A stretch of DNA of 64,000 nucleotides from Candidatus Terraquivivens tengchongensis (lineage in GTDB: Archaea > Thermoproteota > Nitrososphaeria_A > Caldarchaeales > Wolframiiraptoraceae), in the NCBI GenBank assembly GCA_023261845.1, contig JALNJZ010000004.1, forward strand, positions 69,693 to 133,692, written 5' to 3'. Under the pieces are notes generated by a model. The model worked only from the letters and a program-made list of their open reading frames with translations. It searched no databases and was not told the DNA's origin. The position numbers were made by a program, and so were the translations under genes. Below are positions 15,945 to 55,214 of this stretch, piece after piece (position 1 is the first letter of the stretch; each line of letters opens with the position of its first letter).

Positions 15945-17959
15945 GCGTGCCGATTGAGGAAAGACTCGTGGAGTTGTTCAAGAGCGAAAAATACAGAGCC
16001 CTGCTCGCAAGGGCTGCGCTCACGAGTCAAAAGTCCATACCGGTTGACTTCAACGACCTAATAGCGTTCGACGAAGAACTGTCTCATAAGATAGTTGACG
16101 AACCTTTGACGTACCTACCGATACTCAGCAGAGCCGCCTATAAGCAGCTCCAAATAGAGAGTCCAGAATACGCCGCAAAGGTAACGAACTTCTATGCTAG
16201 GGTTCACAACCTACCAGTCGTCACGCCGATACGTGAGATAAGGTCCACGCATCTAAGGAAGCTGATAATGGTAGACGGCATAGTCGTGAGGGCGACCGTG
16301 GTCAAACCGATGCTTGATGTCGGCGTCTTTCAGTGTAGATACTGTGGCGAAAAGTATAGAGTACCACAGAACAACGCACCTAGATTGAGGCAACCAGAAA
16401 GATGCACGAGTCCCCAGTGCAGGGGAAAGAGGCCCGTGTTCGACCTCATCCAAGAAGAATCAGAATTCGTGGACTACCAAGTGATCGGCGTACAAGAAAA
16501 ACCCGAGGACCTCCCGCCAGGTCAGCTACCCAGAGTTATCGAAGTAAGGTTAAGAGACGACCTAGTGGACAGGGCAAGGCCAGGGGACAGAGTCCTAATA
16601 ACGAGCATACTGCTTTCATCTCAAGAAAGGACGGGCGAGGTACCTCTAAGGACGTTCAAGTCGTACTTGGATGCAGTCTGGGTCGAGACTGTCAGCAAAG
16701 AACCCGAGTCTCTCCAGATAACTCCGGAGGAGGAAGAGCTGTTCAAGCAGATGGCTCAAGACCCGCTCATCTACAACAAGATAATGGACTCGTTAGCACC
16801 GAGCATCTACGGGCTTGAGCACATAAAGGAGGCAATAATGCTGTTGCTCTTCGGCGGTAGAAACAAGGTCTTTCCTGATGGTGTGAAGGTCAGGGGCGAC
16901 ATTAACATCTTGCTGGTCGGAGACCCGGGTATGGCGAAGAGCGCCCTACTGCAGTACGTAGCCAACATAGCACCGAGAGGTCTGTATACGTCAGGAAGGG
17001 GTACAACGGCTGCTGGCTTGACCGCTGCAGTAATCAGGGAGCAGGGCGGCGGCATGGTGCTAGAGGCTGGTGCAACTGTCCTCGCGGACATGGGAGTGTG
17101 TTGCATAGACGAGATAGATAAGATGAAGCCCGAAGACAGGGTGGCTCTGCATGAGGTGATGGCGCAACAAACGGTAAGCATCGCCAAGGGCGGCATAGTG
17201 GCTACGTTGAACGCCAGAACTTCGATATTAGCAGCGGCAAACCCTGCGCTCGGTAGATACGACCCCTACATGTCTTTCACGGATAATGTCAACTTACCCG
17301 TAACTCTGCTATCTAGGTTCGACCTCATATTTGTGTTGAGGGACGAGCCAAACTTGGAGCAGGATAAAAAAGTCTCCTCGCATATACTTGCGCTCCATTC
17401 AACGGGTAGCCCGACGGTAGCGCCGCCGATAAAACCGGAGATACTGAAGAAGTACATAGCGTATGCGAAAAGGGTGAACCCTGAACTTACACCTGGAGCG
17501 TTAAAGATCTTGGAAGATTTCTACCTCCAGATGAGGTCAGTCTACGAAAAGACCTCCACGGTCACGATAACCGCGAGGCAGTTAGAATCCTTAATAAGGC
17601 TCGCTGAGGCAAGGGCCAGAGTTGCGTTGAGGGATAAGGTAACAGAAGAGGATGCTGGTGCCGTCGTCCTCTTGATGAAGAGAAGCCTGCAGGAGGTCGG
17701 CATAGACGTCAAGACAGGGAAGCCGGACATAGACGTCATCATGACAGGGAAGCCGAAGAGCGTTAGGGATAAGCTCGCCATCGTCCTGAACATGATAAAG
17801 GAATTCGAAGAGAGGAAAGGGGTCGCGGAGGAAGAGGAGCTGAAGGCTGCCTTGGTGGAGAATGGGTTGAGCGAGCCCGAGATCAACAGGATACTGAGTT
17901 GGCTAATAACCGAGGGTAAAGTTTATACACCGAAGCCAGGCTGTTATAAGGTCGCGTGA
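15941..17959 (+). CDS. mcm: minichromosome maintenance helicase MCM
   Basis: Walker A GDPGMAKS, Walker B CIDEIDKM, arginine finger SRFDLIF, Zn motif CRYCG...C..C. 672 aa. Confidence 0.95.
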   Translation: MSVPIEERLVELFKSEKYRALLARAALTSQKSIPVDFNDLIAFDEELSHKIVDEPLTYLPILSRAAYKQLQIESPEYAAKVTNFYARVHNLPVVTPIREIRSTHLRKLIMVDGIVVRATVVKPMLDVGVFQCRYCGEKYRVPQNNAPRLRQPERCTSPQCRGKRPVFDLIQEESEFVDYQVIGVQEKPEDLPPGQLPRVIEVRLRDDLVDRARPGDRVLITSILLSSQERTGEVPLRTFKSYLDAVWVETVSKEPESLQITPEEEELFKQMAQDPLIYNKIMDSLAPSIYGLEHIKEAIMLLLFGGRNKVFPDGVKVRGDINILLVGDPGMAKSALLQYVANIAPRGLYTSGRGTTAAGLTAAVIREQGGGMVLEAGATVLADMGVCCIDEIDKMKPEDRVALHEVMAQQTVSIAKGGIVATLNARTSILAAANPALGRYDPYMSFTDNVNLPVTLLSRFDLIFVLRDEPNLEQDKKVSSHILALHSTGSPTVAPPIKPEILKKYIAYAKRVNPELTPGALKILEDFYLQMRSVYEKTSTVTITARQLESLIRLAEARARVALRDKVTEEDAGAVVLLMKRSLQEVGIDVKTGKPDIDVIMTGKPKSVRDKLAIVLNMIKEFEERKGVAEEEELKAALVENGLSEPEINRILSWLITEGKVYTPKPGCYKVA

Positions 17960-17978
17960 AGTTTTTGAAAAACTACTG

Positions 17979-20147
17979 GTGCCATCTATGCTCATAACCG
18001 ACCTTCCGATACCAGACTATCTCAAGTCAAACCTCTTGAAGTTCGGGATAAGAGAGCTTTACCCTCCGCAGGTTGAGGCGATAAGGAGGAACGTCCTGAG
18101 CGGGAAGAATCTCGTCCTAGCGACGCCGACCGCCAGCGGAAAGACTCTGGTAGCCATTCTTGCTGCTTCAGTCCACCTCGCGAAAGGCGGCAAGGTGATG
18201 TACCTCACGCCGCTTAGAGCCCTGACATCAGAGAAGCTGCACGAGTTTAGGACGTTGCTGGCTTCCGGAGAGGGTGGAAGGATAAAGGTGGCGGCAACGT
18301 CTGGCGATTATGACAGCGAAGACAGATGGCTTGCCGACTACGACGTCATAATATGCACGAACGAGAAGGCCGACAGCCTCTTGAGGCATGGTGCAGAGTG
18401 GGTAAGAGATGTGTCACTATTAATCGTTGACGAGGTTCACGTCATAGGTGAACCGGAAAGGGGTCCTACACTCGAGGTCGTATTGACGAGGCTCAGAGAG
18501 ATGGCACCGAAGGCACAAGTCCTTTCGCTCAGCGCAACCATAAGGAATGCAGAAGAGCTGGCAGATTGGTTAGGCTGCGAGTGCGTGACGAGTGAGTGGA
18601 GACCTGTTCCGCTTAAGGAGGGGGTCTACTTTGACGGCAAGCTTGAGTTTAACGACAGCAACATCAAGCTAAAGAACTACGAATCAGACCCTACCTTGAA
18701 CGTGGCTATATGGACAATTATGGAGGGCGGACAAGCGCTAATATTCGCGTTATCCAGAAGGAAAGCAGAGAGCTTAGCGGAAAAGGCGGCCGCCGCTCTG
18801 AGCAGACACCCAGAGTGCATCAACTACGAAGAATCAGAGATGTTGAGAAGGTTCGCTGAGGAGATGATGAGCGAAAGCGAGCGCTCAAGCTTCACCGAAA
18901 GGCTTGTCAGGCTCATGGTTAGGGGAAGCGCATTCCATCATGCTGGCCTCGGTTACAAGCACAGGCAGATAATTGAGGAGGCATTCAGGAGCAGGTGTCT
19001 GAAGATACTTTGTGCCACTCCGACACTTGCTGCTGGCGTAAACCTTCCGGCAAGGACCGTTATAATCCCGGAGCTTTGGAGGTACGAGCCGACGTACGGC
19101 ATGCAGTACATATCAGTCATGGAGTACAAGCAGTTTTCGGGAAGGGCTGGAAGGCCGAGGTACGACGACGTGGGATACGCGGTCAGTATAGCAAGAAAAG
19201 AGGTGGAGCGCGAGATGATATTAAGCAGGTACATAATGGGCTTACCCGAAAAGATCTACTCGAGGCTCTCGAGCGAAAGGCACATCAGGATACAGACTTT
19301 GGCCTTGATAGCTACGAGAGCTACGGAAAGCACGAAGGAGCTGCTCAGCTTCTTCGAGAAGACCTTCTTCGGATACCAGTACGGTGTCATCGGCGTGAAG
19401 GACAAAATCATAAAGGCCATAGAGTTCTTGGACAAGCACGGCATGGTGGAGGTTGTTGACGGTGCGCTGAGCGCCACAAGGCTAGGCAAGAGGGTCTCAG
19501 AACTTTACATCGACCCGCTGACTGCAGTTAGGCTTATAGAGGCGATGAATGTGAAGGCAGGGGAGATAACGGACGTGACGCTCCTTCATATGCTCTGCAT
19601 GACACCTGACGTTCCATCCATACCTATGGCTAAGATTTCGCTTGATAGGCTCGCCAACTACTACGAGAAACACAAGGAAGAACTGCTCCTTAAACCACCA
19701 GATCCTGATGAAGAACCAGAGGTCTACGAAGCTTACCTTGAGACTCTGAAGAACGTGATGGTCTTGGAGGCATGGGTAAACGAAGTGAGTGAGGGTGACA
19801 TATACGAGAGGCTGGGCGTCGAGCCAGGCGACCTTGCAGCCCTTAGGGAGAAAGCTGAATGGGTCTGCTACTCGGCCCATCAGATAGCGAACGTCATAAA
19901 GGCAGTTGATTTCATAAGTCCGTTGCGCGTGATGACCGAGAGGCTGAGGCATGGGATAAAGGAGGAGCTCATACCGCTGACGAGGCTCGAGGGGATAGGC
20001 AGGGTTAGGGCAAGGGCGCTGTACAGCAAAGGTTTCAGGAGCATAGAGGACTTGAAGAGGGTGAGCATAAGCGAGCTGATGTCCGTGCCGGGCATAGGAC
20101 CGCAGATAGCGCGCAGGATAAAGGAGCAGCTCAGCGAAGTTCCTTGA
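17979..20147 (+). CDS. hel308: Ski2-type helicase Hel308/Hjm
   Basis: ATPTASGKTL Walker A, DEVH box, C-terminal HhH (SVPGIGPQIARRI). 722 aa. Confidence 0.85.
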   Translation: MPSMLITDLPIPDYLKSNLLKFGIRELYPPQVEAIRRNVLSGKNLVLATPTASGKTLVAILAASVHLAKGGKVMYLTPLRALTSEKLHEFRTLLASGEGGRIKVAATSGDYDSEDRWLADYDVIICTNEKADSLLRHGAEWVRDVSLLIVDEVHVIGEPERGPTLEVVLTRLREMAPKAQVLSLSATIRNAEELADWLGCECVTSEWRPVPLKEGVYFDGKLEFNDSNIKLKNYESDPTLNVAIWTIMEGGQALIFALSRRKAESLAEKAAAALSRHPECINYEESEMLRRFAEEMMSESERSSFTERLVRLMVRGSAFHHAGLGYKHRQIIEEAFRSRCLKILCATPTLAAGVNLPARTVIIPELWRYEPTYGMQYISVMEYKQFSGRAGRPRYDDVGYAVSIARKEVEREMILSRYIMGLPEKIYSRLSSERHIRIQTLALIATRATESTKELLSFFEKTFFGYQYGVIGVKDKIIKAIEFLDKHGMVEVVDGALSATRLGKRVSELYIDPLTAVRLIEAMNVKAGEITDVTLLHMLCMTPDVPSIPMAKISLDRLANYYEKHKEELLLKPPDPDEEPEVYEAYLETLKNVMVLEAWVNEVSEGDIYERLGVEPGDLAALREKAEWVCYSAHQIANVIKAVDFISPLRVMTERLRHGIKEELIPLTRLEGIGRVRARALYSKGFRSIEDLKRVSISELMSVPGIGPQIARRIKEQLSEVP

Positions 20148-20195
20148 AATTAGTTCAGCACCACAGAAAATTTTTTCCAGCATGCTGAACTAATT
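20148..20195. repeat. 48-bp palindromic element, copy 1 (perfect 13-bp stem, T-rich loop), immediately after the hel308 stop
   Basis: aattagttcagca-ccacagaaaattttttcc-agcatgctgaactaatt. The arms at 20148-20160 and 20183-20195 are exact reverse complements. Confidence 0.7.
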
Positions 20196-28020: not shown

Positions 28021-30768
28021 ATGGAAGGCAACAAGCCTATGGTCGAAAATTGGCACTCGATGAGCGTCAAAGAGGTCATGGCTAGGCTTAGGACCGACCC
28101 GGAGAGGGGACTAACTAGCGACGAAGCAATCAACAGGCTCTCTACGTTCGGTCCGAACGAGATCGAAAAACCGAAGAAGGTCTCAGGTCTAAAGATATTC
28201 ATCAGACAATTTAAGAACGTCTTGATTTTGTTACTGCTTGTTGCCACGGTCATATCTGCAATCTTAGGTGAACTTGTTGAGTCCATACTAATATTCATAA
28301 TAGTGATGGCAGCAACCATCTTAGGATTCGTCCAGGAGCTAAGGGCAGAGAAGGCGCTTGAAGCTCTGAAGAAAATGCTGAGCCCGAGGATCAACGTCAT
28401 CCGGGACGGAAAAGTTGTCAACATAGCGACTAAGGAGATTGTTCCTGGCGACGTTATGCTCCTCGAGGCGGGCGACAAGATACCTGCTGATGCACGGCTC
28501 ATTTACGTCGCTAACCTGCAAGTTAACGAGGCATCCCTTACTGGTGAATCCGTACCGGTTTTGAAGCAGGTTGAGCCCTCGCCCGTGGATGCAAGCATTA
28601 GTGATAGACGCTGCATGGTGTTTGCAGGTACAACTGTTACTTACGGTAAGGGCAAGTGCGTAGTCGTTGCTACGGGAATGAATACAGAGCTCGGTAAGAT
28701 AGCCAGAACTGTGGCTACGATCGAAAAGGAGGAGACACCACTCGAGAGGAAGACGAAGGAAATAGGCAACTTCCTCGTTAGGGTCGTAATAATCGTAATA
28801 AGCTTGATAGCTATTGCAGGCATCCTCGAGGAGCTGTTTCTGTACGGCAATCTGACCGTTGATTTCGTCGTCGAGATGATGGTATTCGCTGTAGCCCTAG
28901 CGGTGGCAGCGGTTCCGGAGGCATTACCGGCGATCGTTACGGGCACGCTGGCTATAGGCATGTATGTGATGGCTAAGCACAATGCCTTAATCAGGAGGAT
29001 GTCAGCCGTGGAGACGCTCGGTTGCACACAGGTCATATGCTCCGACAAGACTGGGACGCTCACTAAGGGTGAGATGACAGTTGTGCAGCTCTTTGTTTCA
29101 GGAAGAAACATCAAGGTCTCGGGCACAGGTTACGAGCCAAAAGGAGGGTTCTTCGAGGATGGGAAGATCATAGAACCCGATGGGTCAATCCATCTGCTCC
29201 TTAAGGCAGGTTCACTTTGTAACGATGCGCAGCTCGTGAATACCAACGGAGGATGGAGCGTGATAGGAGATCCGACAGAGGGTGCACTCATAGTCGTTGC
29301 CAGAAAGGCTGGAATAGACGAGCTAGAACTCAGGAAGGCAAACCCAAGAGTCTTCGAGGTACCATTCAGCTCGGAGAGAAAGAAGATGACGACTGTCCAC
29401 AAGACGCCGGACGGGTCTTTGGTTGCATACATGAAGGGAGCTGTCGAGGTAGTTCTAGATTCTTGCGATAGGATTCTCCTGAACGGAGAGGAGGTACAGC
29501 TATCGGATGAGTTGAGGTCGGATGTACTTGCGATAAACGACGAGATGGCAGCAAACGGTCTCAGGGTGTTGGCTATAGCATATAGAAGTAGTGTTGACTG
29601 TGAGGAATATACAGATGCCGAAAAGCTCGAGAGGAATTTCATACTGATCGGCCTATTCGGCATGATGGACCCGCCAAGAGAAGATGCCATAGAGGCCATC
29701 AGGGTGTGCAAGCAGGTTCAGATAAAACCCGTGATGATTACTGGTGATCATAAGCAGACGGCCGTGGCCATCGCAAAAAGCATGAAGATCTACGAGGAAG
29801 GGGACATCGTGCTAACTGGTCAGGAGTTGGAGAAGATAGACGATGCCGAGCTTAGCAAGGTGTGCGAGAAGGTCACAGTTTATGCGAGGGTTTCTCCGCT
29901 AGACAAGCTGAAGATAGTTAAGGCATGGAAGCGAAGGGGAAAAATCGTCGCGATGACTGGTGACGGTGTGAACGACGCACCAGCGTTGAAGCAGGCCGAC
30001 ATAGGCGTCGCCATGGGAATAACGGGGACTGAAGTCTCGAAGGAAGCGGCCGACATGGTCCTGTCCGATGACAACTTCGCTACAATCGTGAAGGCTATAG
30101 AGCTGGGCAGATGGATATACGACAACATCAAGAAGTTCCTGCTCTACCTACTCGAGAGCAACATAGTTGAGGTAGCGGTCATAGCCATACTCGTGCTCTT
30201 AGGGTTTCCGCTCCCTCTGCTACCAGTCCACATACTGTACATAAACTTGGCAACCGATGGTCTCCCTGCGATCGCTCTCGGCTTAGCGCCGCCAGAGCCT
30301 GGACTCATGAATCGACCACCGAGAGATCCGAAGGAATCCGCATTCTCGCGTGAAATTAAGTTTCTGTTAGGCTTAATAACTTCCATTCATACGCCGTTCT
30401 TTGTTTGGATCTTCTTCTCGAACATAGGCAGGGGTATCGACGTTGCTAGGACTATTCTCTTCCTATCCTTCGTCATCGTTGAGCTTTCTCTTGCGTTGAA
30501 CCTTTGCTCGATAAGGTACCCAATAACTAAAGTCAAGCCACATAAGTGGTTATTGCTTGCTGTACTATGGGAAGTTTTCATGTTGTGTATGATAGTCAGC
30601 TTGGAAGGTCTAAGAAACGTCTTTCAGCTAGTGCCGCTATCGTCCCAAGATCTTATTACGTTAGCGTTTGTAGCGCTCATACCATTTGTCGAGTTTGAAT
30701 TGATAAAGCGTATAGCACCAGACCTCCTAATACCAGAATCTGAGTTGAAGTTTCAAAAAATAAGTTAA
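28021..30768 (+). CDS. P-type cation-transporting ATPase (P2, Ca2+-type)
   Basis: CSDKTGTLT phosphorylation site, TGDGVNDAPAL hinge, 10 TM segments. 915 aa. Confidence 0.9.
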   Translation: MEGNKPMVENWHSMSVKEVMARLRTDPERGLTSDEAINRLSTFGPNEIEKPKKVSGLKIFIRQFKNVLILLLLVATVISAILGELVESILIFIIVMAATILGFVQELRAEKALEALKKMLSPRINVIRDGKVVNIATKEIVPGDVMLLEAGDKIPADARLIYVANLQVNEASLTGESVPVLKQVEPSPVDASISDRRCMVFAGTTVTYGKGKCVVVATGMNTELGKIARTVATIEKEETPLERKTKEIGNFLVRVVIIVISLIAIAGILEELFLYGNLTVDFVVEMMVFAVALAVAAVPEALPAIVTGTLAIGMYVMAKHNALIRRMSAVETLGCTQVICSDKTGTLTKGEMTVVQLFVSGRNIKVSGTGYEPKGGFFEDGKIIEPDGSIHLLLKAGSLCNDAQLVNTNGGWSVIGDPTEGALIVVARKAGIDELELRKANPRVFEVPFSSERKKMTTVHKTPDGSLVAYMKGAVEVVLDSCDRILLNGEEVQLSDELRSDVLAINDEMAANGLRVLAIAYRSSVDCEEYTDAEKLERNFILIGLFGMMDPPREDAIEAIRVCKQVQIKPVMITGDHKQTAVAIAKSMKIYEEGDIVLTGQELEKIDDAELSKVCEKVTVYARVSPLDKLKIVKAWKRRGKIVAMTGDGVNDAPALKQADIGVAMGITGTEVSKEAADMVLSDDNFATIVKAIELGRWIYDNIKKFLLYLLESNIVEVAVIAILVLLGFPLPLLPVHILYINLATDGLPAIALGLAPPEPGLMNRPPRDPKESAFSREIKFLLGLITSIHTPFFVWIFFSNIGRGIDVARTILFLSFVIVELSLALNLCSIRYPITKVKPHKWLLLAVLWEVFMLCMIVSLEGLRNVFQLVPLSSQDLITLAFVALIPFVEFELIKRIAPDLLIPESELKFQKIS

Positions 30769-30795: not shown

Positions 30796-31398
30796 ATGGA
30801 GAAAAATGTAAAATTCATGGTCGAGGCATATAAGGATGAGTACATTGATTCGTGCCTCTACAAAAACATGGCCGCATACGTTAAGGATGAGGTTAAGAGA
30901 CAGACCTTCGATGAGTTGTCCAAGGTAGAGAGGACGCACGCAAATTTTTGGTATGATTTTTTGGAGAGTATGGGAATAACGCCAAGCATAAGTCTGAGCT
31001 CTAGGTTGAAGTTGTTCTTCATGATTCTGTTCACGAGGCTTCTTGGATACAAGCTAACCATAAGGCTCTTTGAGGCGGGCGAGCTAGCCGCGATAAAGAA
31101 GTATTCAGAGCTATATAGGTCTGCAGACCTTACCAAGGATGTTCGAGAACAACTTGGAAAAATAATCTACGATGAGATATCACATGAAGAATACTTGATG
31201 TCTGAAGTGCTAAAGATTAAAACGATGTTTGAACGTGTGAGGGATGCGTTGTACGGTATGGTGGATGCGCTTGTCGAGGTTCTTGCGGTCGTGGTTGGCT
31301 TGGCGAGCGTAATTCGAGAACCTGTAGTTGTGGCTTTGGCAGGAATAATAGCCGGTTCTGCTGGGACTTTCTCCATGGCACTTCATCCATACAACTAG
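30796..31398 (+). CDS. ferritin-like/rubrerythrin-like domain protein with a truncated VIT1-like C-terminus
   Basis: Ferritin-like four-helix region followed by a single hydrophobic segment (LVEVLAVVVGLASV) typical of the start of a VIT1 domain. The gene ends at the putative deletion junction. Confidence 0.45.
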   Translation: MEKNVKFMVEAYKDEYIDSCLYKNMAAYVKDEVKRQTFDELSKVERTHANFWYDFLESMGITPSISLSSRLKLFFMILFTRLLGYKLTIRLFEAGELAAIKKYSELYRSADLTKDVREQLGKIIYDEISHEEYLMSEVLKIKTMFERVRDALYGMVDALVEVLAVVVGLASVIREPVVVALAGIIAGSAGTFSMALHPYN

Positions 31399-31399
31399 C

Positions 31400-31579
31400 A
31401 CAACCCAAGGTCAGGGTTAGCGTACTCTTACCGTAGCCAGTCGGAAGTAAAAAAATACAAAACGTTGGTAAATTATTATGTAAAAATTCATCAACTACCT
31501 TTAGGGGCTTATGTATGAGTGTTCTTGCCCGCCAAGAAAGAGCGCCACATATGTTCAAGTACAACTCATGTAATGTCAC
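31400..31579 (-). pseudogene. cas3: cas3' (helicase) N-terminal fragment, truncated
   Basis: Minus ORF beginning at 31579 and overlapping the cas5 stop: ...HKPLKVVDEFLHNNLPTFCIFLLPTGYGKSTLTL. This carries helicase motif I. The frame then runs antisense into the ferritin-like gene. Confidence 0.55.
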
Positions 31580-32366
31580 GTGAGATCACCATAACGTTTT
31601 CACCATCGGTGTATGCCAGACCCTTACTTGACAGTCTGAGTTCAATGACATCGCTTTCGATAAAACCACGTACTTTCCCTGGAATTATATAACGGACTGG
31701 TTTTGGTTTCTTAGCGCCGAATTCATCATCCCAAAACTCTACCTCATCGTAGTTATGGTTCTCAATCGATTCTTTAGCTTCTGAAGGAAAGTAATACGAA
31801 GTTTTGACAACGTCCTGTTTAACAAGCCATGAATCGTTAAGCTTAACATCCTCGACACTTACTATGCTCTCCTTTGAACCTATCCGAGTGATGCTCCAAG
31901 CACTACGAATTAAAGATTGTTTCCAGCCATCGCCTAAAATCGACTTTACCTTGTCTTCGTCTATCAAGTAAAGCGCATGAAACGCTCTATGAGGCGCAAG
32001 CACTTTTCCAGACGGAATTGCGCCAAACCTATACTCCATCAACGCTCTTCTTGCAGGTTTTTGGAAGTGAAGCACGATGTAACGATTGATATCCAGCCAT
32101 TCGCTAGCGACTTCATTGTGTTCATATTCGAATCTACATGAAGCAGCCTTTATGAAATTCATCAAAAATGCTGAGGATGTTAGATTGAGTTTTCTCCTCT
32201 TCATGGACGTGTATATTGTTTCGGAGTTATCCATGAGTCCCTTTAAAAGAGCTCCTTTGAGTGTATTAGGAGGTGGTAGCGCAAACGCTGGTTGACCCTT
32301 GCTAGAAAACGGATGTTTAACAGAGTAGCCCCAATGAAACCTCGCTCGTATATGAAGAAGCATCAT
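31566..32366 (-). CDS. cas5: CRISPR-associated Cas5 (subtype I-A)
   Basis: N-terminus LHIRARFHWGYSVKHPFSS...ALPPPNTLKGALLKGL carries the Cas5 PPPST-type motif. Confidence 0.75.
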   Translation of the reverse strand: MMLLHIRARFHWGYSVKHPFSSKGQPAFALPPPNTLKGALLKGLMDNSETIYTSMKRRKLNLTSSAFLMNFIKAASCRFEYEHNEVASEWLDINRYIVLHFQKPARRALMEYRFGAIPSGKVLAPHRAFHALYLIDEDKVKSILGDGWKQSLIRSAWSITRIGSKESIVSVEDVKLNDSWLVKQDVVKTSYYFPSEAKESIENHNYDEVEFWDDEFGAKKPKPVRYIIPGKVRGFIESDVIELRLSSKGLAYTDGENVMVISRDIT

Positions 32367-32371
32367 CTTCT

Positions 32372-33481
32372 TCAGCCGGACATTTCTTGGTCCACTAACT
32401 TAGCTACTTCCAGTAAAGCCTCCTCTAGGCTACTTCCTAGTTTAAGTGTGACATTATCGTAGGTCTCCTCAGCTATGTCCTTGTCTTCTTTTGTTACCGC
32501 AAATATGCTGACTTTTTCCTCTATACCATGTCTCGATAAAGCTTCAGTCATCTTCTTTGCTCGTTCCACAGAATCCCTTACATGAGTCCAATAGTTTCCA
32601 GGCGAAGCTACGAAATCCGACATTCTTGACAAAGTTATGACTGCCGACCTGACGTCGATTATCGGATGGAAACGGCTTTTCTTTGCTCCAAATGACAGGT
32701 TTGTAAACAATAGCGTAAGGGCATCAATCGCAAGCTTAATTCTTGGGATTCTTTGTTTCATGAGTTCTTCCTCCCTATTTACCTTGCCTTTAGGGACGGG
32801 CATGCCCTTCTCATCAAGCAAAGGTGTGGAGGGCATGGCTATACCATCTACATCTAAGTTGAACGTTAAAGTATACAGCGCAGAACCTACTTCGACATTA
32901 TAGGGAATCATCGGACGTGCTTGACCCGCTTCTTTCTCCTTCTCGACCTGGCTCAGGGCCATTCTGACATGGAATTGACTTTCGAGACCTATAGCATGGG
33001 AAGAATCTAGAGCTGGAATCATATAACTTGCTTGGAATCTAGAAGTTCTTCTTACAGGTATTTTGCCTGCATATAAGAACCCACCTATGTCTGCTACAAC
33101 ATCGTGTAGGAGCACATCTACCTCGAACCTTCTTGCATCTCTCTGATCTTCTGGCCGCTTAATACCTTCTAAGTAACTGTCATCCGCATACTTTATGAAC
33201 TCTTTCGCTGCAGTTAGCGTACCGACTGGAAGACCATACTTTGGAGCAAGGTCTACTAATATGCTTTGGTACTCGTGGGCTATAGTTTCACCTGAAACCG
33301 CTGGGACGTACCTTATTACATACTGACCGTCATCTTGTTTGACGACTATTGGCGCGGTCCTATGTCTAGAGAGATTTCCAACACTTTCGACCATGTTAAG
33401 CGCTTCAGCGTTTACCAGAAGCCTTAAGGAAAGACTAAGAAACATACTAACCACCTTCCTCCTTAAGCAACACATCCACAA
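32372..33481 (-). CDS. cas7: CRISPR-associated Cas7 / Csa2 (subtype I-A, DevR family)
   Basis: FLSLSLRLLVNAEALNMVESVGNLSRHRTAPIVV...YVPAVSGETIAHEYQ is the classic Csa2 N-terminus. The true start is probably the internal Met at about 33445. Confidence 0.8.
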   Translation of the reverse strand: MWMCCLRRKVVSMFLSLSLRLLVNAEALNMVESVGNLSRHRTAPIVVKQDDGQYVIRYVPAVSGETIAHEYQSILVDLAPKYGLPVGTLTAAKEFIKYADDSYLEGIKRPEDQRDARRFEVDVLLHDVVADIGGFLYAGKIPVRRTSRFQASYMIPALDSSHAIGLESQFHVRMALSQVEKEKEAGQARPMIPYNVEVGSALYTLTFNLDVDGIAMPSTPLLDEKGMPVPKGKVNREEELMKQRIPRIKLAIDALTLLFTNLSFGAKKSRFHPIIDVRSAVITLSRMSDFVASPGNYWTHVRDSVERAKKMTEALSRHGIEEKVSIFAVTKEDKDIAEETYDNVTLKLGSSLEEALLEVAKLVDQEMSG

Positions 33482-33827
33482 TCTTATAGGTGGCCTTAGC
33501 GGCGACCCGTCTGGCTAAAAGCAAGTCTTTCGTAGCCTCCTCCACGAAGTTATCCAGCTCACTATAGGAGGCAAGCTTCCCGGGAATTCGAAGCAACCTA
33601 TCCTCCCTATCTTTTACTTCGGTATAAGGCCTACCTGCTTCTTCGCAGACCCTTACTCTATCCTTTATAACGGTAAGAATTCGCGCAACCTCATAAGTGG
33701 CCTTTGCCACGACCTCGCCGCTCATGGCGTTGGCTAACCTATCCACGGTAGAATAGCTTCCCGTGGCTGCAACAACTGCTGCGAATGCAACAGCAACACC
33801 ATCAAACTTAGAGCTGATTGAACTCAT
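33447..33827 (-). CDS. csa5: putative Csa5 (type I-A small subunit)
   Basis: 126-aa helical protein immediately upstream of csa2, in the canonical I-A gene order. Confidence 0.45.
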   Translation of the reverse strand: MSSISSKFDGVAVAFAAVVAATGSYSTVDRLANAMSGEVVAKATYEVARILTVIKDRVRVCEEAGRPYTEVKDREDRLLRIPGKLASYSELDNFVEEATKDLLLARRVAAKATYKIVDVLLKEEGG

Positions 33828-34078
33828 ATGTTGTCAATAGTTCGATTTCCGCATATAAGCTTAACTAAGAATTTTGCATATATATGCAAACGGAGCTAAA
33901 TCAATTAAAGATGCACAATTAGGTGACACTCACTAATAACGTTCTAAGACACCAACACTATTCTAGAATTGGTTAATTCTGCTGTTGGGAGTGAAGCCTT
34001 TTTGCAAAATTTGTGCCAAAAATATTTTTATTTTTAATTAAGTATTTTAATAAGTATTTTAATAGTTAGGGGATAGAT

Positions 34079-34606
34079 ATGGGTAGGACTAGGGCTGTTT
34101 TGAGGAGGCAGGTTCCGCTCTGGCTATTAATACTCCTCGTCCTCTTGGTTGGGGCTGGAGCTGCTGTAGCCATAACAGCATATACGCTGACATATTATGC
34201 TAAGGCTGCTACAGTAATAGTCTCCGATGACGCCCTCATCCATATTGACGGTTTCCCTGAGTATGGGATCTACATAGCAGAGACAAGCAAGTCCGCCAAT
34301 ACGAATGGTGAACTGAGCTATCCGTATAGTAAAGTTAATAATGATATAACCGCCGGACACTATGTAATATCATTTACGATTAGAGAGAATGAGAACTTAG
34401 AAGCATATGCTGGCAGCCGCTGGAAGGTATACGTCTACTTCGGCGTCACTAAGCTGGGCGAGTTCACCATAACACAAAACACAGCAGAAAGAGACATCAT
34501 TGAGGGGGTTGAGGTCCACGTTGACCTCGGGCTCGGACCTGGACAGGAAGGTCAGCTGCCAGATATCAGTAATCCGGTGCGCATAATAGCCATAAGGCAA
34601 TCATAG
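34079..34606 (+). CDS. membrane-anchored/secreted hypothetical protein
   Basis: N-terminal TM/signal LWLLILLVLLVGAGAAVAITA. 175 aa. Confidence 0.4.
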   Translation: MGRTRAVLRRQVPLWLLILLVLLVGAGAAVAITAYTLTYYAKAATVIVSDDALIHIDGFPEYGIYIAETSKSANTNGELSYPYSKVNNDITAGHYVISFTIRENENLEAYAGSRWKVYVYFGVTKLGEFTITQNTAERDIIEGVEVHVDLGLGPGQEGQLPDISNPVRIIAIRQS

Positions 34607-34685
34607 CAGCTCACAACTATAACGCAAAACAAACCTTTTTTATATTTACTTTGCATAATACCACCATAAACTATTGGGATCTCTC

Positions 34686-35590
34686 GGTTGTTGAAGGAAT
34701 TGCCTTCTTAAGCATTCGCATCTGCGGGACTGTATTTACGTATATTGGCTAGCGATAAAATTATGTTGATCCATTTTTCTTCGGCTTTTGCTGAGGTCTC
34801 CTCGCCTAGCGCAGTATTAGGTCTCAGGTAGTTGTAGTATATTCGATACCCATTTATCATCTCCTCGAACTTTCCTCTTGCCCCTCTCTTCTCCCTAACC
34901 CACTCTTTGAGTGTGCCGTGCAGTCTCTCCACTATATTATTGTTCTCATCCTTTGCTAGGCCAGCATTACTTATGTGGCTTATTGGTAGGCCTAGGATCT
35001 CAAGAGCCCTTCTATAGGAGTGAAGCCCATCCGTCACCATTGCTTTTGGGATCTTGCCGGAGTTTTTAATTGCCTCCTTTATTGCCTTAATAGCGTCACC
35101 AGCGTCCCGACCAGATGTGAGCAATGACGCTATGTATATCCTCGTCTCATAGTCCATTACATTCCACAGGTACATCGGCTCGCCATTAACCTTAACGACA
35201 GTTTCGTCTGCAAGCCACTTATCGCCGACCTCCAATTTAGTCTCCTCAGCCTCCTTAAAGACCTCTATAAGCCTTGACCCCTACCATGGGTAGTGAACCC
35301 ATACTCTACCATCCTGGTCAACCATGAAAACCCTTCTGGTCAAACCTATGACCTCAGTAGCCTTATTTAAAAGATTTAATAGAAAAGCTAGTGCAGCTTC
35401 ATAGCCGCCTCTAGAAATGATGTCAACTACCTCGAAGACTTTATCAACTCTCATCAGATCAGCCCGGTTAATGCAGTATACTGCTAGGCAGAAACCATCC
35501 TCATCCTCCTTGAAAGCTCCATGATGCCATTCATTGTTATCAGTAGCAAGTCATCACCATACTTATCATGACTAAACTTGTTATTCAACC
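34686..35590 (-). mobile_element. IS6-family insertion sequence (about 905 bp) with imperfect terminal inverted repeats (GGTTG...) and a flanking tctctc direct repeat
   Basis: Ends GGTTGTTGAAGG (34686) and CAACC (35590, reverse complement GGTTGAATAAC). The flanks tctctc at 34680-85 and 35591-96 look like a target-site duplication. Confidence 0.5.
34708..35454 (-). pseudogene. IS6-family DDE transposase interrupted by an in-frame TAG (35281-35283)
   Basis: DETVVKVNGEPMYLWNVMDYETR...AMVTDGLHSYRRAL parallels IS26 Tnp (DETYVKVNG...YLYRAVD...NTDKAPAYGRAL). The N-terminal HTH part lies in the same frame upstream of a single amber codon. Confidence 0.6.
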
Positions 35591-35918
35591 TCTCTCGAAA
35601 ACGTTCGAAATAACTGTGTTCTCTCAGCATATGTTCGAGAACGTTAGTGTTTTATCATATACCCCGTTTCAACCTGAGACCAATCCTCTTCGAAATCTGA
35701 TTTGTTTTTCAATTCCCTTGTTGGTATCAGTGCGGCCTTTTTCCGGTTTCTACACCTTCATGAGCCGCTTTTGTAAACTACTCTTGCGGCGGCAGGGGTT
35801 AATCATGATATGTATATAAACTTATTCTGCGTCTCGGTAATACTGAATTTGTTCGGCCGAAGCATATGAAAGCCGAACGCAGAAAACATAATACCAGACA
35901 TAGGCTTTTACATCCTTT

Positions 35919-37445
35919 GTGAATGCTCAGAAGACCAGCCTTCTTATCATGGCACCTATAGGGGACCTCTCAGGCTGGAGGCTAGCAAACTACTATATTC
36001 AAGGCAAACGCTACTCGACGTGCTGCTCTGCCATAGCTCTGGCCCTACACAACTCCCAGCGTTATAACCACATACATCTGCAGATTTATGTGCTCGACTC
36101 TCTAACATGCTCACCTTTGCTTGGGAAGTGGTCCGAGGATCAACCTTTACAGAGGCAAGTCATTAAGCAAGTTTTGGAGAAATCGTTTAAAGAGGAGGTG
36201 CTTAAGGTTGCCCAGAGATCAGGTATTGGGGCGCAAGTAGGGCATAACGGTGCTGTTTACATAAGAAGCCAGTGCACCCTGACAATATCGGTCCACATAT
36301 CCCAAGCTGCTGGTGAATATGCTGTTAACAGGGAAGGAGCCCCAGTAGCATCAGCCGTATTTAACGGAGACCCCACATCAATATTCACAAAGATCATCTC
36401 CTCAGTCATAACACTTCCTGAATACGGCGACATACTGTTAGACCTCACACATGGTATCAACTACATGCAGTCGATGGCGGTCTATGCAGTTGAGATACTT
36501 AAAAATCTTATACCCGTCAACGTCAGGGTGCACAACGCCTCACCTTATCCGTCTGGAGTCTACCAAACAACCTTCTGCTTTCCCACAACCGTAAAGCAAG
36601 TAAAACAAAACATAATGAGAAATCAGCCCGATTTAATGATACTCGACCTATCAGGCCTGCAGCACCTTTGGGATCTTTCGGCAAGCTTCTCCAATCTAAC
36701 CCTTACTAGAAAAGATGTGGAGACTATTCGTAAAGCCCTCAATCACGTCATCTCTCAACTTAAGCTATGTAGCACAAGCTATAATGTTTTACAGGCTCGC
36801 CACACGGTACTGGCTTGGTATTACTTAGCGGCTGGGGTGATCACGATAGGTTACATCAATGCGGTAAAGTCTTTCAAAGAGACGGTTGATCTGGACAACA
36901 TCCAGCAACTTGCAAATAAAATAGAAGAGGCTGAAATCGGCTTCGATGTTGAGGGGGATAACGATCGCATCATATTCAAATACAGGGCTCGTACTGATTG
37001 GAGGTTTGCTGTTCCGTTCATTGTGTGGTACATGCGCCAGAGGCTAGCCCAAGTCATTAGCAGAAAGGATATTAAGGAAACGGATAAGATAACTGTCAAT
37101 GGAAATGAGCTGATAACACTGCTCGACGGACTCTCTAATGTAAATCCTCTCTACATGGCCGTCGGGAATGCTCTGAGATATGAGAGGGACAGGATACTCC
37201 AGAAGAGCCGAGACCTTAAGATGTATGAGTTCTCCATGGAAAGATCTGAATATAGGAAGCTGTTTTTCGGTACAGATAGTCCTCTCAGCCAGCTAAAGTT
37301 AAGTGAAATGAAAAGACACCTACAGGCACACGTGGGTATAACATACGAACCAGTCACCCATATAAAAATAACCGATAATGAGGTTCAGTTAACGCTGAGG
37401 GTTGGGGACCTTGGAGAGGGTCCCTACAACGTATGGCCTAAGTGA
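35919..37445 (+). CDS. csx1: Csx1-family CRISPR-associated CARF-HEPN protein (DxTHG motif)
   Basis: N-terminal CARF-like GDLSGWRLANYYIQG. DLTHGINYM is a DxTHG motif. C-terminal HEPN Rx4H (KRHLQAHVG). 508 aa. Confidence 0.55.
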   Translation: MNAQKTSLLIMAPIGDLSGWRLANYYIQGKRYSTCCSAIALALHNSQRYNHIHLQIYVLDSLTCSPLLGKWSEDQPLQRQVIKQVLEKSFKEEVLKVAQRSGIGAQVGHNGAVYIRSQCTLTISVHISQAAGEYAVNREGAPVASAVFNGDPTSIFTKIISSVITLPEYGDILLDLTHGINYMQSMAVYAVEILKNLIPVNVRVHNASPYPSGVYQTTFCFPTTVKQVKQNIMRNQPDLMILDLSGLQHLWDLSASFSNLTLTRKDVETIRKALNHVISQLKLCSTSYNVLQARHTVLAWYYLAAGVITIGYINAVKSFKETVDLDNIQQLANKIEEAEIGFDVEGDNDRIIFKYRARTDWRFAVPFIVWYMRQRLAQVISRKDIKETDKITVNGNELITLLDGLSNVNPLYMAVGNALRYERDRILQKSRDLKMYEFSMERSEYRKLFFGTDSPLSQLKLSEMKRHLQAHVGITYEPVTHIKITDNEVQLTLRVGDLGEGPYNVWPK

Positions 37446-37485
37446 TGCTAGAAAAGAATATAGACATCGTAGGCAACATCCATAT

Positions 37486-37848
37486 ATGCATAGTGATGTT
37501 CTGGACCTTGCAGCAGTCCTCAATACACTTAAGAAAACCCATGTCCAGACACTATGGACCATAGCCGAGCTCGGAGGAAGAGCTCGGCTCAAAGACCTTC
37601 AGAAGAAGATTAAGGCCTCAAAGTCAACACTCAGCAGCAGGCTGGCAGCTTTAGCTGACAAGGGATTAGTGACATATGAAGCTGGCTTTGCGGAGCTTGT
37701 CTATAAAACACCCCTATGTTATCTTGCAAACATTGAGAACATACCATACGCATATGTTGGCCTCCTCGGAAAACCCTTACCAGTGGAGCATAGGGAGCCT
37801 GAGACAGAGACAGCAATTAGCCTCCTTCGCGAGGGGGCATTACAATAG
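37486..37848 (+). CDS. winged-helix DNA-binding protein
   Basis: LKDLQKKIKASKSTLSSRLAALADKGLV is a wHTH recognition helix. The listed ORF starts at 37402 and overlaps csx1, but ATG 37486 is the more likely start. Confidence 0.45.
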   Translation: MHSDVLDLAAVLNTLKKTHVQTLWTIAELGGRARLKDLQKKIKASKSTLSSRLAALADKGLVTYEAGFAELVYKTPLCYLANIENIPYAYVGLLGKPLPVEHREPETETAISLLREGALQ

Positions 37849-37901
37849 ATAAGATTCTTGTCGCCACCACCAAGGATGCTATTGAAGAATGGACTCCCAT
37901 A

Positions 37902-38198
37902 ATGAGTCCGGAATTAAGGGCGATGCTTGATTTTGCAATACTTGACATCAGGGAGATGAACAGCATTGAGGCGGTTATGGATAGGATGACCAGAAGGATA
38001 CTTGACCTAACTAGACGCTATATCACAATTCTAGATTGCACATCAGGGACAAGGCCGGCTGGCATAGCCTATTATGCCATTGCTGACAAGCTCAAAACGC
38101 CCCTGATATATGTCTACGCTGATGAAAAAAGAATTTATTGGCTCAAAAACCGCAGAACGCTTATCACAGAGCTAAATTTACAGCACATAAAATCATAA
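37902..38198 (+). CDS. small protein with a CARF-like DxTxGxR motif
   Basis: ILDCTSGTRPAGIAYY. The same frame stays open upstream to 37821 (PPSRGGITIDKILVATTKDAIEEW), so the gene may be frameshifted or fused with the wHTH gene. Confidence 0.35.
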   Translation: MSPELRAMLDFAILDIREMNSIEAVMDRMTRRILDLTRRYITILDCTSGTRPAGIAYYAIADKLKTPLIYVYADEKRIYWLKNRRTLITELNLQHIKS

Positions 38199-38425
38199 CC
38201 TCTCTAAGACGGCTGAACCTTAAGAACTGTTCTTAATTCTCTTTTTGGGATTGAGAGCATATATCAAGACTCATGATAATTTTTAATCCTAACTTTATTC
38301 ATAATAAGGAGCATTCTTTGAAATGTAATAGGCACCATTACCTATAGAAAGATTTTATTTTTAAATATGTTAAAAACTTTAGCAGAGAGGTTGTGTAGCC
38401 TCGAAATCGTGAAGGAGATTGTAAC

Positions 38426-50290: not shown

Positions 50291-50339
50291 AATTAGTTTT
50301 ACATCTGTGGAAAAATTTTTCCAGCATGCTGAACTAATT
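50291..50339. repeat. palindromic element, copy 2 (imperfect stem)
   Basis: aattagttttaca-tctgtggaaaaatttttcc-agcatgctgaactaatt. It shares about 28 bp (aaaatttttccagcatgctgaactaatt) with copy 1. The loop segment ccacag versus ctgtgg is inverted. Confidence 0.65.
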
Positions 50340-52560: not shown

Positions 52561-54372
52561 CTAAATCGCACATGTTTCAGGCATGGGTATTGCTTCTAGG
52601 AATTCCTTTTGGAATTCTGGCTCGGCAGCTAGCTCCACGTATTCTATCTTCTTAGCGACGTTACATGCAACATCTCTCAGGGTCTTTGAAAGAAGCATAG
52701 CTCTCGCACCGGCACCAGCAGCATTACCAACAATCCTTATCTTGCTCAAGTCTATGTTAGGATACAACCCTATAATTTTTGCCGAGATTGGATTAAGAAA
52801 GAAACCAAACGTACCGGCAACGTAAAGCCTCTCAGCTTCTGATACATCTACCTGAAGCTTCTTCATCAAAATGTTCATGCCAGTCCTGATCGCTGCCTTT
52901 GCCAGCTGTATTTCTCTTATGTCCTTCTGCGTCAACACTATGTCCTCGCCTATGGCCGTGTTCTCTTTGTATTCTACGACGAATTCTGGATAATTCCTAT
53001 CATTCATCCTTATGCGTCTTGTGCCTACATTCGTGTTCAACCTTCCCGACTTATCCATCAGACCTGTCGTAAATAAACCAGCAACTAAGTCGACAACCGC
53101 AGAACCTGTCATGCCTCTTGGCTTTACGTTACCTATAACACTATAGCTCACCTCACCATTAGCCATAACCTCTATCCCGTATATCGCACCGATGGTGGCC
53201 CGCATTCCGTAGGTTATGTGGGCGCCCTCAAACGCAGGGCCAGATGCGGTTGAGCAAGCGACAAATTTTCCATCCTTCTTGACGACTATCTCAGTATTCG
53301 TTCCTACATCAACTAAGATTGCAGCATCCGCATCTTCTTGCATGTTGGTTGCTATGATGTCGGCTACAACGTCCGAGCCCATATATCCCGCGATTAGCGG
53401 CGGCATAAAGAGTCTAGCTTCAGCATTCGCACGTATACCTACACTTTTTGCCATAACACATAATGGTTCTCTTGTCGTGGGTGTGTACGGGAAATATGCT
53501 AACCTTTTCGGCTCAAGACATAAAAGGAAATGATGCATGACTGTATTACCTACAGCCACTACCTCATAAACGTCTTCAACGTCACTTCCAGTTGTATCAC
53601 ATGCCGTGTTTATGAGTTTATTTATACAGCTGATTATTTTTTCTTGCAACGCTTTAACACCTTCCTTTAAGGCATAGTCGAGCCTAGATACGACGTCCTC
53701 ACCATAAGCTATCTGTGGGTTGATATCGGAAACTGTTGACAAAGTCTTACCACTCATTAGGTCGACTAGGTAACCAACAACTTTGGTTGTACCCACGTCT
53801 ACTGCGAAGCCAAGAGGTCTGCAGTTCTCTCGTACATCGATTATCTCATCGTTGTAAGTTATAAGCGAGAGTTTTTTCTCAATACCTACATCGGCTATAC
53901 GGGAAAGCTTCTGTAACGCATGAAGATTAAATCGTTTTGGTACACTTAACGATGATACAACTTCATCCAATGCACCCCATACTTTAGCAGGTAGTGTGAC
54001 GTTAACTTTCTGGACTACAGAATCAAACCGCTCCTCAAACACTTCGCCTTCAACTGATACGACATATTCGCCCAACCTACTCTCGCCCGGCACGAATACC
54101 GATATCGCATTCTCTCTAACTATCTTGCATCTGCAAGAAAGTCTATAACCTTCGTTCAGCTTCTTTGAGCTGAGCACTATTTTTTCATCACTAGTTAAAT
54201 CAGATATACTATCTGAGCCGACGATTATTTTGACCATACACTTTCCACATAACGCCTTTCCATTGCAAGGTCCAATGATGTCAATTCCTGCCCTGCGAGC
54301 AACTTCAAGCAAAGATTCGCCGATTTTTGCCTCAACCCTTTTCCCTTCTGGCATGAAGCTGACGATAACCAT
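52561..54372 (-). CDS. reductive activase of corrinoid proteins (RACo/COG3894: N-terminal [2Fe-2S] ferredoxin plus ASKHA ATPase)
   Basis: N-terminus GPCNGKALCGKC...YRLSCRC (plant-type ferredoxin cysteines) fused to an actin-fold ATPase region. 603 aa. Confidence 0.65.
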   Translation of the reverse strand: MVIVSFMPEGKRVEAKIGESLLEVARRAGIDIIGPCNGKALCGKCMVKIIVGSDSISDLTSDEKIVLSSKKLNEGYRLSCRCKIVRENAISVFVPGESRLGEYVVSVEGEVFEERFDSVVQKVNVTLPAKVWGALDEVVSSLSVPKRFNLHALQKLSRIADVGIEKKLSLITYNDEIIDVRENCRPLGFAVDVGTTKVVGYLVDLMSGKTLSTVSDINPQIAYGEDVVSRLDYALKEGVKALQEKIISCINKLINTACDTTGSDVEDVYEVVAVGNTVMHHFLLCLEPKRLAYFPYTPTTREPLCVMAKSVGIRANAEARLFMPPLIAGYMGSDVVADIIATNMQEDADAAILVDVGTNTEIVVKKDGKFVACSTASGPAFEGAHITYGMRATIGAIYGIEVMANGEVSYSVIGNVKPRGMTGSAVVDLVAGLFTTGLMDKSGRLNTNVGTRRIRMNDRNYPEFVVEYKENTAIGEDIVLTQKDIREIQLAKAAIRTGMNILMKKLQVDVSEAERLYVAGTFGFFLNPISAKIIGLYPNIDLSKIRIVGNAAGAGARAMLLSKTLRDVACNVAKKIEYVELAAEPEFQKEFLEAIPMPETCAI

Positions 54373-54512
54373 TCTTTCCTTGTTCCCCCAGATTCAGCTC
54401 ACATCCCCGTTAAAAGCATATATCCTTTAAAAGTCAAACTGCTATACCGATACAATATTTACACATACATGTAAAGCTATAAATAAATAGCAGATAAAAG
54501 TTTCGCGAGTAC

Positions 54513-55214
54513 GTGACGCAAGCAGAAGATGTTATAGTTAGCAAGCAACTAGCCAGACTTAAAGAGGCAATACTGAACGGTGATGCAAACACCGCAAGAG
54601 AGGCAGCTACTATCTTAAAAGAGAAAGGTCTCTTGCCCCTCGACATAGTTAATCGAGCCATTAAACCAGCGATGGATGAGATGGGTAAAAGGTATGAGAG
54701 GTTAGAGGCATTTCTTCCTGACCTAGTCTTAGCAGGTGAGGCGGCCCAAGAAGCATTGAAAGTTATACTACCAAAAGAAGGGGAAGAAGCTTTCATCAAG
54801 GGCAAGGTCGTCATCGGAACTATATACGGAGACATACATGATATAGGTAAGAACATCGTGGCAGCGATACTGAGTGCCAACGGTTACAAAATAATAGACC
54901 TAGGTAATGATGTGCCACCTGAAAGGTATATTGAAACGGCAAAGAAAGAGGGCGCGCATATTATAGGCATATCATGTCTCCTGACACCATCAATGTACTA
55001 TATGAGGGATGTTATCAGAAAGTTAGAAGAAGAAAACATTAGGGACAAGTTTTACGTGATCATTGGTGGAGCAGCAGTTTATCCAGATTGGGCTAAGGAA
55101 ATTGGTGCAGATGGATGGGCCAAAGATGCCGAAAGAGCGGTCCAGCTTTGCGATACCCTAATCGAAAGGGGCAAGGAACTTCCTAAACCCGTTATTTTAG
55201 GCGAATGGCGCTAG
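54513..55214 (+). CDS. mtaC: corrinoid (cobalamin-binding) protein, MtaC-like
   Basis: B12-binding DxHxxG motif (GDIHDIGKNIV) with an N-terminal helical cap. 233 aa. Confidence 0.75.
   Translation: MTQAEDVIVSKQLARLKEAILNGDANTAREAATILKEKGLLPLDIVNRAIKPAMDEMGKRYERLEAFLPDLVLAGEAAQEALKVILPKEGEEAFIKGKVVIGTIYGDIHDIGKNIVAAILSANGYKIIDLGNDVPPERYIETAKKEGAHIIGISCLLTPSMYYMRDVIRKLEEENIRDKFYVIIGGAAVYPDWAKEIGADGWAKDAERAVQLCDTLIERGKELPKPVILGEWR

Follow-up and report, generated by a model that had tools for sequence, protein, structure and literature searches.

The csa5-cas7-cas5 genes

The window, a stretch of 64,000 nucleotides from Candidatus Terraquivivens tengchongensis (contig JALNJZ010000004.1 of assembly GCA_023261845.1), holds part of a type I-A locus of the CRISPR-Cas kind. 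The genes csa5, cas7 (csa2) and cas5a are followed by the beginning of a cas3 gene, and a gene for a ferritin-like/VIT1 protein, which converges on them, is cut short at the same place (Table 1). The genus Terraquivivens belongs to the family Wolframiiraptoraceae, order Caldarchaeales (PMC9246946), and the closest named contigs to the window are those of Ca. Terraquivivens ruidianensis, at 80-85% nucleotide identity.

All three interference genes are intact. In profile searches Csa5 matches the small-subunit family PF09702 (E 4e-15; 56.5 bits, cut-off 23) and stays under the cut-off of TIGR01878 (45.5 bits against 53.35). The backbone subunit is a Csa2-type Cas7, recognized by TIGR02583 (E 2.6e-71; 240.2 bits, cut-off 212.6) and by PF01905 (E 4e-69), and Cas5a is recognized by TIGR01874 (E 1.1e-16; 61.3 bits, cut-off 23.05); the Pfam profile search returned no match for the latter protein. 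The genes are tightly packed, with a single nucleotide between the csa5 stop codon and the cas7 ATG, and the GTG start of the cas3 remnant (31579) sits inside the 3' end of cas5. An earlier sequence-only reading of this DNA had described csa5, csa2/cas7 and cas5 as intact and tightly coupled. The spacing agrees with this, each of the three proteins scores above the cut-off of a family profile (Csa5 through PF09702), and the Cas7 and Cas5 domains on which that description depended are both recognized.

Upstream of csa5, homology to all intact contexts described below stops at 33890, and the window shares only 63 bp with them. This short segment is predicted to hold the core promoter. A TTATAT box (33858..33853) precedes the csa5 ATG by about 25 nt, and further 5' the sequence TTTGCATATATATGCAAA (33890..33873) forms a perfect palindrome of 18 bp, a layout that would fit a leaderless archaeal promoter.

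A junction between cas3 and VIT1

The 70 native residues of the cas3 remnant are 100% identical to residues 1-70 of the 845-residue Cas3 of sister genomes. The open reading frame (ORF) that contains them (31579..31217; 120 amino acids) is a chimera, which carries the motif LLPTGYGKST and then reads antisense through the end of the VIT1 gene. Both features had been noticed in the sequence-only reading, which saw in the motif that the gene begins as a cas3' does; its figure of about 50 native codons has to be raised to 70. With 70 of 845 residues left, the window has neither the helicase nor the HD nuclease of Cas3. Profile searches with the chimeric ORF found no family, and a PDB sequence search with it was discarded, as it returned chance matches only.

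The VIT1 gene is damaged in a mirror-like manner. Its product covers positions 1-50 of the 214-position VIT1 profile, while the intact homologue of 370 residues covers 1-214, so that the early stop suspected from the letters is real. The gene is cut after its first transmembrane segment and does not encode the complete VIT membrane domain that defines a VIT1/CCC1 iron transporter.

When the window is aligned with both intact parental genes, the match to VIT1 extends to 31380, while the match to cas3 is already in place from 31371 onwards. Both parents contain the 10 bp of overlap, CTCCATGGCA, and the junction joins VIT1 codon 195 to cas3 codon 70. Outside the array, the deleted interval has some 60 further pairs of 10-mer direct repeats; the event therefore looks like an ordinary microhomology-mediated deletion and not like site-specific recombination.

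An assembly or binning artefact that joined two unrelated loci would also produce such a junction. All sequences compared here are metagenome-assembled genomes, and elsewhere one contig (L070, discussed below) looks like a mis-join through an exact repeat of 143 bp. At this junction, however, the shared sequence is far shorter than assembler k-mer sizes, and the junction recurs identically in at least three separate assemblies, on up to seven contigs. The same 70 nt across the junction recur without a difference in L002, L009 and L012 (GCA_038838905.1), L014 (GCA_038823985.1) and L010 (GCA_038822585.1), and L014 matches the window with 100.000% identity over 17,962 bp. It is absent from the Joint Genome Institute (JGI) metagenome contigs that were searched. 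Because the overlap is just 10 bp and at least three separate assemblies agree, we regard the junction as real and an artefact as next to negligible.

The intact parental locus

An exact-sequence look-up retrieved the Cas7 protein from many contigs of the same species, at approximately 99.6-99.8% nucleotide identity to the window, and on most of them csa5-cas7-cas5 continues into a full type I-A locus; overall, the genomes with the intact arrangement are 99.6-99.9% identical to the window. The VIT1 side was recovered by a look-up of the nitroreductase adjoining the P-type ATPase, which gave the order ATPase, full VIT1, flavin reductase and csa3. Other routes were less fruitful: the truncated VIT1 protein as a homologue query yielded just a 140-residue partial sequence with no gene context, and exact look-ups of the ATPase and of Csx1 matched deletion-type contigs only and did not reveal the intact arrangement. 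The two pieces overlap on one contig of 1.25 Mb, JAWAKX010000001.1; the whole ancestral arrangement is therefore contiguous and reads P-type ATPase, VIT1 (370 residues), flavin reductase, csa3, csa1, cas1, cas2, cas4, CRISPR array, cas6, csaX, cas3, cas5, cas7, csa5. The intact VIT1 allele also occurs in three JGI metagenome contigs, two of which are of a type without the I-A cassette.

In these sister genomes Cas3 is a single fused protein with its helicase core at residues 46-411 and its HD domain at 615-815, and the large subunit is a CsaX of 412 residues. A suspected N-terminal disruption of cas3 in some intact loci (782 against 845 residues) was rejected, since these loci do not differ in their DNA but merely in where the start of the gene was called. 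The arrays of the intact loci have 15-43 repeats of the 24-nt sequence GAATCTCAAAAAGAGAATTGAAAG, with the 3' end ATTGAAAG.

Compared with these parents, the deletion in the window measures 12,438 bp (JAWAKX010000001.1), 11,049 bp (L095) or 10,580 bp (L096), a spread that is due to the different array lengths of the comparison genomes. By profiles, the deleted interval encodes the Cas3 helicase and HD domains, CsaX, Cas6, Cas4, Cas2, Cas1, Csa1, Csa3 and a flavin reductase. The proposal that one deletion truncated both convergent genes is thus borne out directly by the intact parents and by the switch within the 10-bp microhomology, and the suggested comparison with related genomes does reveal the intact I-A locus. 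As to content, the sequence-only reading was right that the remainder of cas3 and the large subunit were lost, but it expected separate cas3' and cas3'' genes and a cas8a, whereas cas3 is fused and the large subunit is CsaX. In addition, the event took cas6, the array, the cas4-cas2-cas1-csa1 adaptation genes, csa3 and the flavin reductase gene.

Conversely, the short arrangement could be ancestral, with the cas genes inserted later in the genomes that appear intact. The region is indeed a hotspot with several alternative arrangements. Against this, VIT1 in the window is without 175 residues of a conserved domain, cas3 is down to 70 of 845, and each ORF ends in the antisense of the other. Furthermore, the outgroup contig L040 (Ca. 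Terraquivivens ruidianensis, 83-85% identity) aligns over approximately 7 kb of intact interference cassette, from csa5 to cas6. The short arrangement is the derived one, because both genes have lost conserved domains and the outgroup possesses the cassette, and an insertion scenario has hardly any probability left. Relatives with this gene arrangement and no extra cas genes, which would have spoken for it, were not what the comparison found: related genomes, an outgroup species among them, carry these genes.

Table 1. Coordinates of the features of the locus and of other genes in the 64-kb window
Feature	Position in window	Strand	Description	Basis
csa5 (type I-A small subunit)	33827..33447	minus	intact, 126 aa	PF09702
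cas7/csa2 (backbone subunit)	33445..32372	minus	intact, 357 aa from ATG at 33445	TIGR02583, PF01905
cas5a	32366..31566	minus	intact, 266 aa	TIGR01874
cas3, native remnant	31371..31579	minus	GTG start, codons 1-70, Walker A PTGYGKS	alignment to 845-aa Cas3
Antisense-VIT1 tail of chimeric 120-aa ORF	31217..31370	minus	out of context, ~50 codons	
Deletion junction	31371..31380	not applicable	10-bp microhomology CTCCATGGCA	three-way alignment with both parents
Ferritin-like/VIT1 gene, truncated	30796..31398	plus	200 aa: 195 native codons to 31380, then LHPYN-stop from antisense cas3	
Core promoter region of csa5, predicted	33828..33890	minus	63 bp, retained	alignment with three intact contexts
P-type ATPase gene	28021..30768	plus	5' of truncated VIT1, converging on cas3 stub	
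Replacement block	33891..35497	not applicable	1,607 bp in place of 13,852 bp of L105	
175-aa ORF	34079..34606	plus	no assigned function, N-terminal hydrophobic segment, in replacement block	
IS6-family transposase gene, N-truncated	34708..35235	minus	N-terminal third lost, in-frame stop upstream	
csx1 (CARF protein, type III accessory)	35919..37445	plus	intact	PF22230 E 3.8e-16; TIGR02549 DxTHG motif
wHTH-CARF regulator pseudogene	37402..38198	plus	148-aa + 98-aa ORFs; 1-nt deletion near 37834	
RACo-type corrinoid activase, MtmB-family and MtaB-family genes	52561..57973		cluster	
MtmB-family gene	55231..56613		full-length profile match, no in-frame stop	
MtaB-family methyltransferase gene	56591..57973			

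A second loss upstream of csa5 and recurrent losses in the population

The truncated locus has suffered on its other side as well. In a contig recovered through its Cas10 (L105), the order is a 262-residue regulator with winged helix-turn-helix (wHTH) and CARF domains, csx1, csa1', three small ORFs, Cas_NE0113, a second cas6 (273 residues), the Cmr genes of a type III-B system, a 406-residue gene and csa5. Positions 35498..38307 of the window correspond to 2876..1 of L105, and positions 31371..33890 to 19248..16729. In between, a short block with an insertion sequence (IS) remnant replaces csa1', the second cas6 (cas6'), the whole Cmr type III-B module and the 406-residue gene. Terminal inverted repeats of the IS element were looked for around the transposase remnant and were not found; the block also holds an ORF of 57 residues. 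In L105 and L107, csx1 stands beside cmr genes, but the copy in the window is left without a neighbouring Cmr effector module. The regulator, intact with 262 residues in L105 and L107, is frameshifted in all deletion-type loci. The type III-B loss and the frameshifted regulator in the same lineage form a pattern of wholesale decay, and this lineage has lost every CRISPR effector module that its relatives show at this locus.

Some smaller observations concern the same segment. The domain order of the regulator, wHTH followed by CARF, is the reverse of that in Csa3. About 120 nt 5' of csx1 (35706..35825) are 87% identical to L105 6344..6465, a segment upstream of both the cmr genes and the second cas6, which suggests that csx1 and these genes share a promoter or operator. 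A sequence of about 48 nt (38344..38391 in the window) has copies at L001 1714..1769, L003 9386..9432, L005 1725..1772 and L105 16559..16605, with 83-91% identity. The copies mark the boundaries of alternative gene blocks between glnA and csa5, and the sequence may be a recombination point or a common regulatory element. One such block, with hisD, GOGAT and NRD1_2 genes (L001 1770..9555, between glnA and csa5 in some sisters), has no counterpart anywhere in the window.

Loss of the I-A cassette is not confined to this lineage. A third arrangement, seen in L015-L020 and in two JGI metagenome contigs, lacks the whole cassette and shows VIT1, flavin reductase, NRD1_2 regulator and GOGAT genes. 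Its flanks meet in a 46-bp hybrid (L015 15216..15261) of two direct repeats of 33-46 bp, the parental copies of which lie in the 5' part of csa3 and in a csa3-like fragment upstream of csa5 (L095 4524..4569 and 17053..17098). Recombination between these repeats has cost this variant 12.5 kb. Still other genomes are without the III-B block or without the hisD-GOGAT block. Counting the deletion in the window, at least three losses have occurred independently at this one hotspot in one population.

Instead of becoming fixed neutrally, the deletion could have been favoured as an escape from the cost of the I-A system, for example from self-targeting after the uptake of foreign DNA such as the IS-bearing block. 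Sulfolobus offers well-documented cases of CRISPR-Cas modules being lost under pressure from self-targeting. In the present lineage, two separate losses bracket the stump, with the IS remnant at one of them, and the population has lost the I-A cassette more than once. On the other hand, none of 735 unique spacers, from all fetched arrays (the lineage's own lost array is not among them), matches the window or its flanks outside the arrays, and nothing here tells selection from drift. We consider positive selection an unlikely cause, albeit one with some claim to attention.

What the deletion lineage retains

The products that were lost could be encoded elsewhere in the genome. The region searched comprises the window and 9 kb to its left, about 73 kb in total. 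In it, tblastn gave no match to Cas6, Cas6', CsaX, Cas1, Csa1, Csa3 or Cas10 of the sister genomes, so that no large subunit accompanies the trio there, and cas3 beyond residues 1-70 was not found either. For cas4 there was no tblastn match in the window, and the sole match is a 26-residue remnant outside it. The exact Cas6 of the intact locus occurs only within intact I-A loci, and both cas6 genes of the CRISPR regions recovered from this species fall in the two deleted segments. The sequence-only reading had stated that cas6, cas1, cas2, cas4 and an array are missing from the 64 kb. For cas6, cas1, cas4 and the array this holds within the window; no search was made for cas2, and some 4.9 kb past the left edge there is an array whose repeat is identical.

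This orphan array (L091 3284..4138, GCA_038838905.1) was found in a genome that is 99.995% identical to the window. It has 13 copies of a 24-nt repeat that it shares with the lost I-A array and is located between genes for a major facilitator superfamily transporter and an AsnC regulator, with window position 1 some 4.9-5.8 kb to its right and cas5 about 36.5 kb away. Its 119-nt leader (from L091 3165) and that of the I-A array have 99.3% identity. As this match includes the last 78 nt of cas4, the orphan array arose by duplication of leader and array.

Two further observations were made on this array. Its five leader-proximal units (L091 3284..3682) have 12 additional conserved nucleotides, TTTGGATGCCTT, directly 3' of the repeat. 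In the oldest unit these 12 nt are simply the start of a normal spacer of 44 nt, while in the four newer ones they are followed by 39-42 nt. Such a pattern would be expected from four integrations in succession, each of which duplicated the repeat together with the 12 nt, the second cut being 12 nt off register. Secondly, contig JAWAJB010000021.1 (L070, placed by binning in Desulfurococcaceae) connects the window's left flank and the orphan array's trailer side with the I-A genes cas4-cas2. It is most likely a mis-join through the 143-bp exact duplication of leader and first repeat, and probably mis-binned as well, although it may be a true recombinant.

A recent relic or a minimal complex

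Taken together, these data lead us to consider csa5-cas7-cas5, with a probability of roughly 0.87, as a recent relic: the stump that a type I-A locus has left in a single clonal lineage of an uncultured archaeon from hot springs. A single illegitimate recombination between the two copies of CTCCATGGCA, one in VIT1 and one in cas3, removed the 10.6-12.4 kb between them, probably by replication slippage or microhomology-mediated end joining. It left the trio behind its core promoter, the 70-codon cas3 stub fused to antisense VIT1, and the shortened VIT1. Without Cas3, CsaX, Cas6, the adaptation genes and Csa3, the trio should be unable to perform interference. In Thermoproteus tenax, soluble Cascade, the effector complex of type I systems, was obtained only from all six subunits together, and Cas3' and Cas3'' are integral to it (PMC4005679).

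That the trio is nevertheless intact can be attributed to the young age of the deletion. Six loci carry its haplotype without a single difference over 2,520 bp, and only 4-9 substitutions separate it from intact haplotypes. When polarized with the outgroup contig L040, the only derived amino acid change in the trio is I55M in Cas5, and csa5 has synonymous or no changes compared with most intact-locus haplotypes. The deletion is too recent for decay, and intactness therefore carries no information on function.

Several points weigh against the relic. The three genes are undamaged and translationally coupled behind a retained core promoter, and the genome keeps the 13-repeat array with its intact leader. 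A Cas7-Cas5a subcomplex of Sulfolobus solfataricus, as cited in PMC4005679, binds CRISPR RNA (crRNA) by itself. In a test for relaxed selection on the trio, the substitutions, with one derived amino acid change among them, were too few to show any relaxation. Finally, with a search that covered about 73 kb, a distant cas6 or cas3 may be present in the genome.

On these grounds it could be imagined that the trio is a working, nuclease-free RNA-guided complex, supplied with RNA by the orphan array, which binds DNA for regulation or for some other non-destructive role. The intact ORFs and promoter, the array in the same genome and the behaviour of the S. solfataricus subcomplex would suit such a function, and type I-A Cascade has a side role in transcription regulation in Sulfolobus (PMC5389559). 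That regulatory role, however, requires Csa3b, Cas8a, Cas6 and crRNA (PMC5389559). Both recovered cas6 genes were lost with the deleted segments, no large subunit was found near the trio, and the T. tenax complex needs all of its subunits to be soluble. Moreover, the Cas3-less architecture is limited to one clonal haplotype in which the adjoining CRISPR genes are decaying, and every other recovered locus with these genes, the outgroup included, also has cas3, csaX and cas6. We thus hold a working complex to be very improbable. The specific form in which the trio is expressed from the retained promoter, loads RNA of the orphan array with the help of an undetected Cas6 or a host RNase, and acts as a minimal nuclease-free DNA- or RNA-binding complex is, if anything, a shade more remote. 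If it were true, such a complex could be seen as a natural beginning of the path to a Cascade with a new purpose.

Between the two possibilities that the sequence-only reading had left side by side, a relic and a nuclease-free complex, the evidence favours the relic. By analogy with Sulfolobus, the promoter of the trio would probably be derepressed, with Csa3, Cas6, the arrays and the rest of Cascade gone. High levels of Csa5 were toxic in CRISPR-less cells (PMC5389559). Derepression combined with such toxicity would predict further loss, if anything.

Comparison with known systems

The genes in the window share their order, csa5, cas7/csa2, cas5a and then cas3, and their tight coupling with the type I-A Cascade loci of Thermoproteus tenax, Sulfolobus and Pyrococcus. 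The sister genomes complete this likeness with CsaX, Cas6, Csa1, Csa3 and a 24-nt repeat that ends in ATTGAAAG. The window departs from these systems in that just 70 residues of Cas3 remain and nothing is left of CsaX, Cas6, the array or the adaptation genes. Even the intact relatives differ in one respect, as they have one fused helicase-HD cas3 of 845 codons instead of the split cas3' and cas3''.

As in other known partial Cascade gene sets, an incomplete subset of genes coexists with a CRISPR array elsewhere in the genome. In contrast to those, the origin of the present set is documented at base-pair resolution with both parents still in the population, and no complete cassette was seen in the portion of the window's genome that was examined.

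Derivatives of type I systems that are Cas3-less by nature include the Tn7-like CRISPR-associated transposons of types I-F3 and I-B and the type IV systems. All of these retain Cas6 and a large subunit together with a dedicated array, are tied to transposition or to DinG-type partners, and are conserved in many lineages. The trio resembles them as a Cas7-Cas5 backbone without the Cas3 nuclease. It differs in having neither its own Cas6 and large subunit nor an adjacent array, and it shows no linkage to Tn7-like transposition genes or a DinG-type partner: its neighbours within approximately 10 kb are the ATPase gene, the truncated VIT1 and IS6 transposase genes, csx1, the regulator pseudogene and glnA. 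Furthermore, the Cas3-less architecture of the window is found in one haplotype and is not conserved over diverged lineages.

The locus is a clean natural example of archaeal CRISPR-Cas loss, in which intact parents and a deleted derivative coexist at more than 99.6% identity. It also calls for caution in automated annotation, as a match to csa5-cas7-cas5 would score as a type I-A system.

Other observations in the window

Away from the CRISPR locus, the window contains the methyltransferase gene cluster listed in Table 1, and such genes are noteworthy in a Caldarchaeales-like genome. In addition, a 30-nt sequence occurs twice, at 20166..20195 and 50310..50339. The two copies are 97% identical and about 30 kb apart, each lies 3' of a gene end, and the repeat has the palindromic core CAGCATGCTG.

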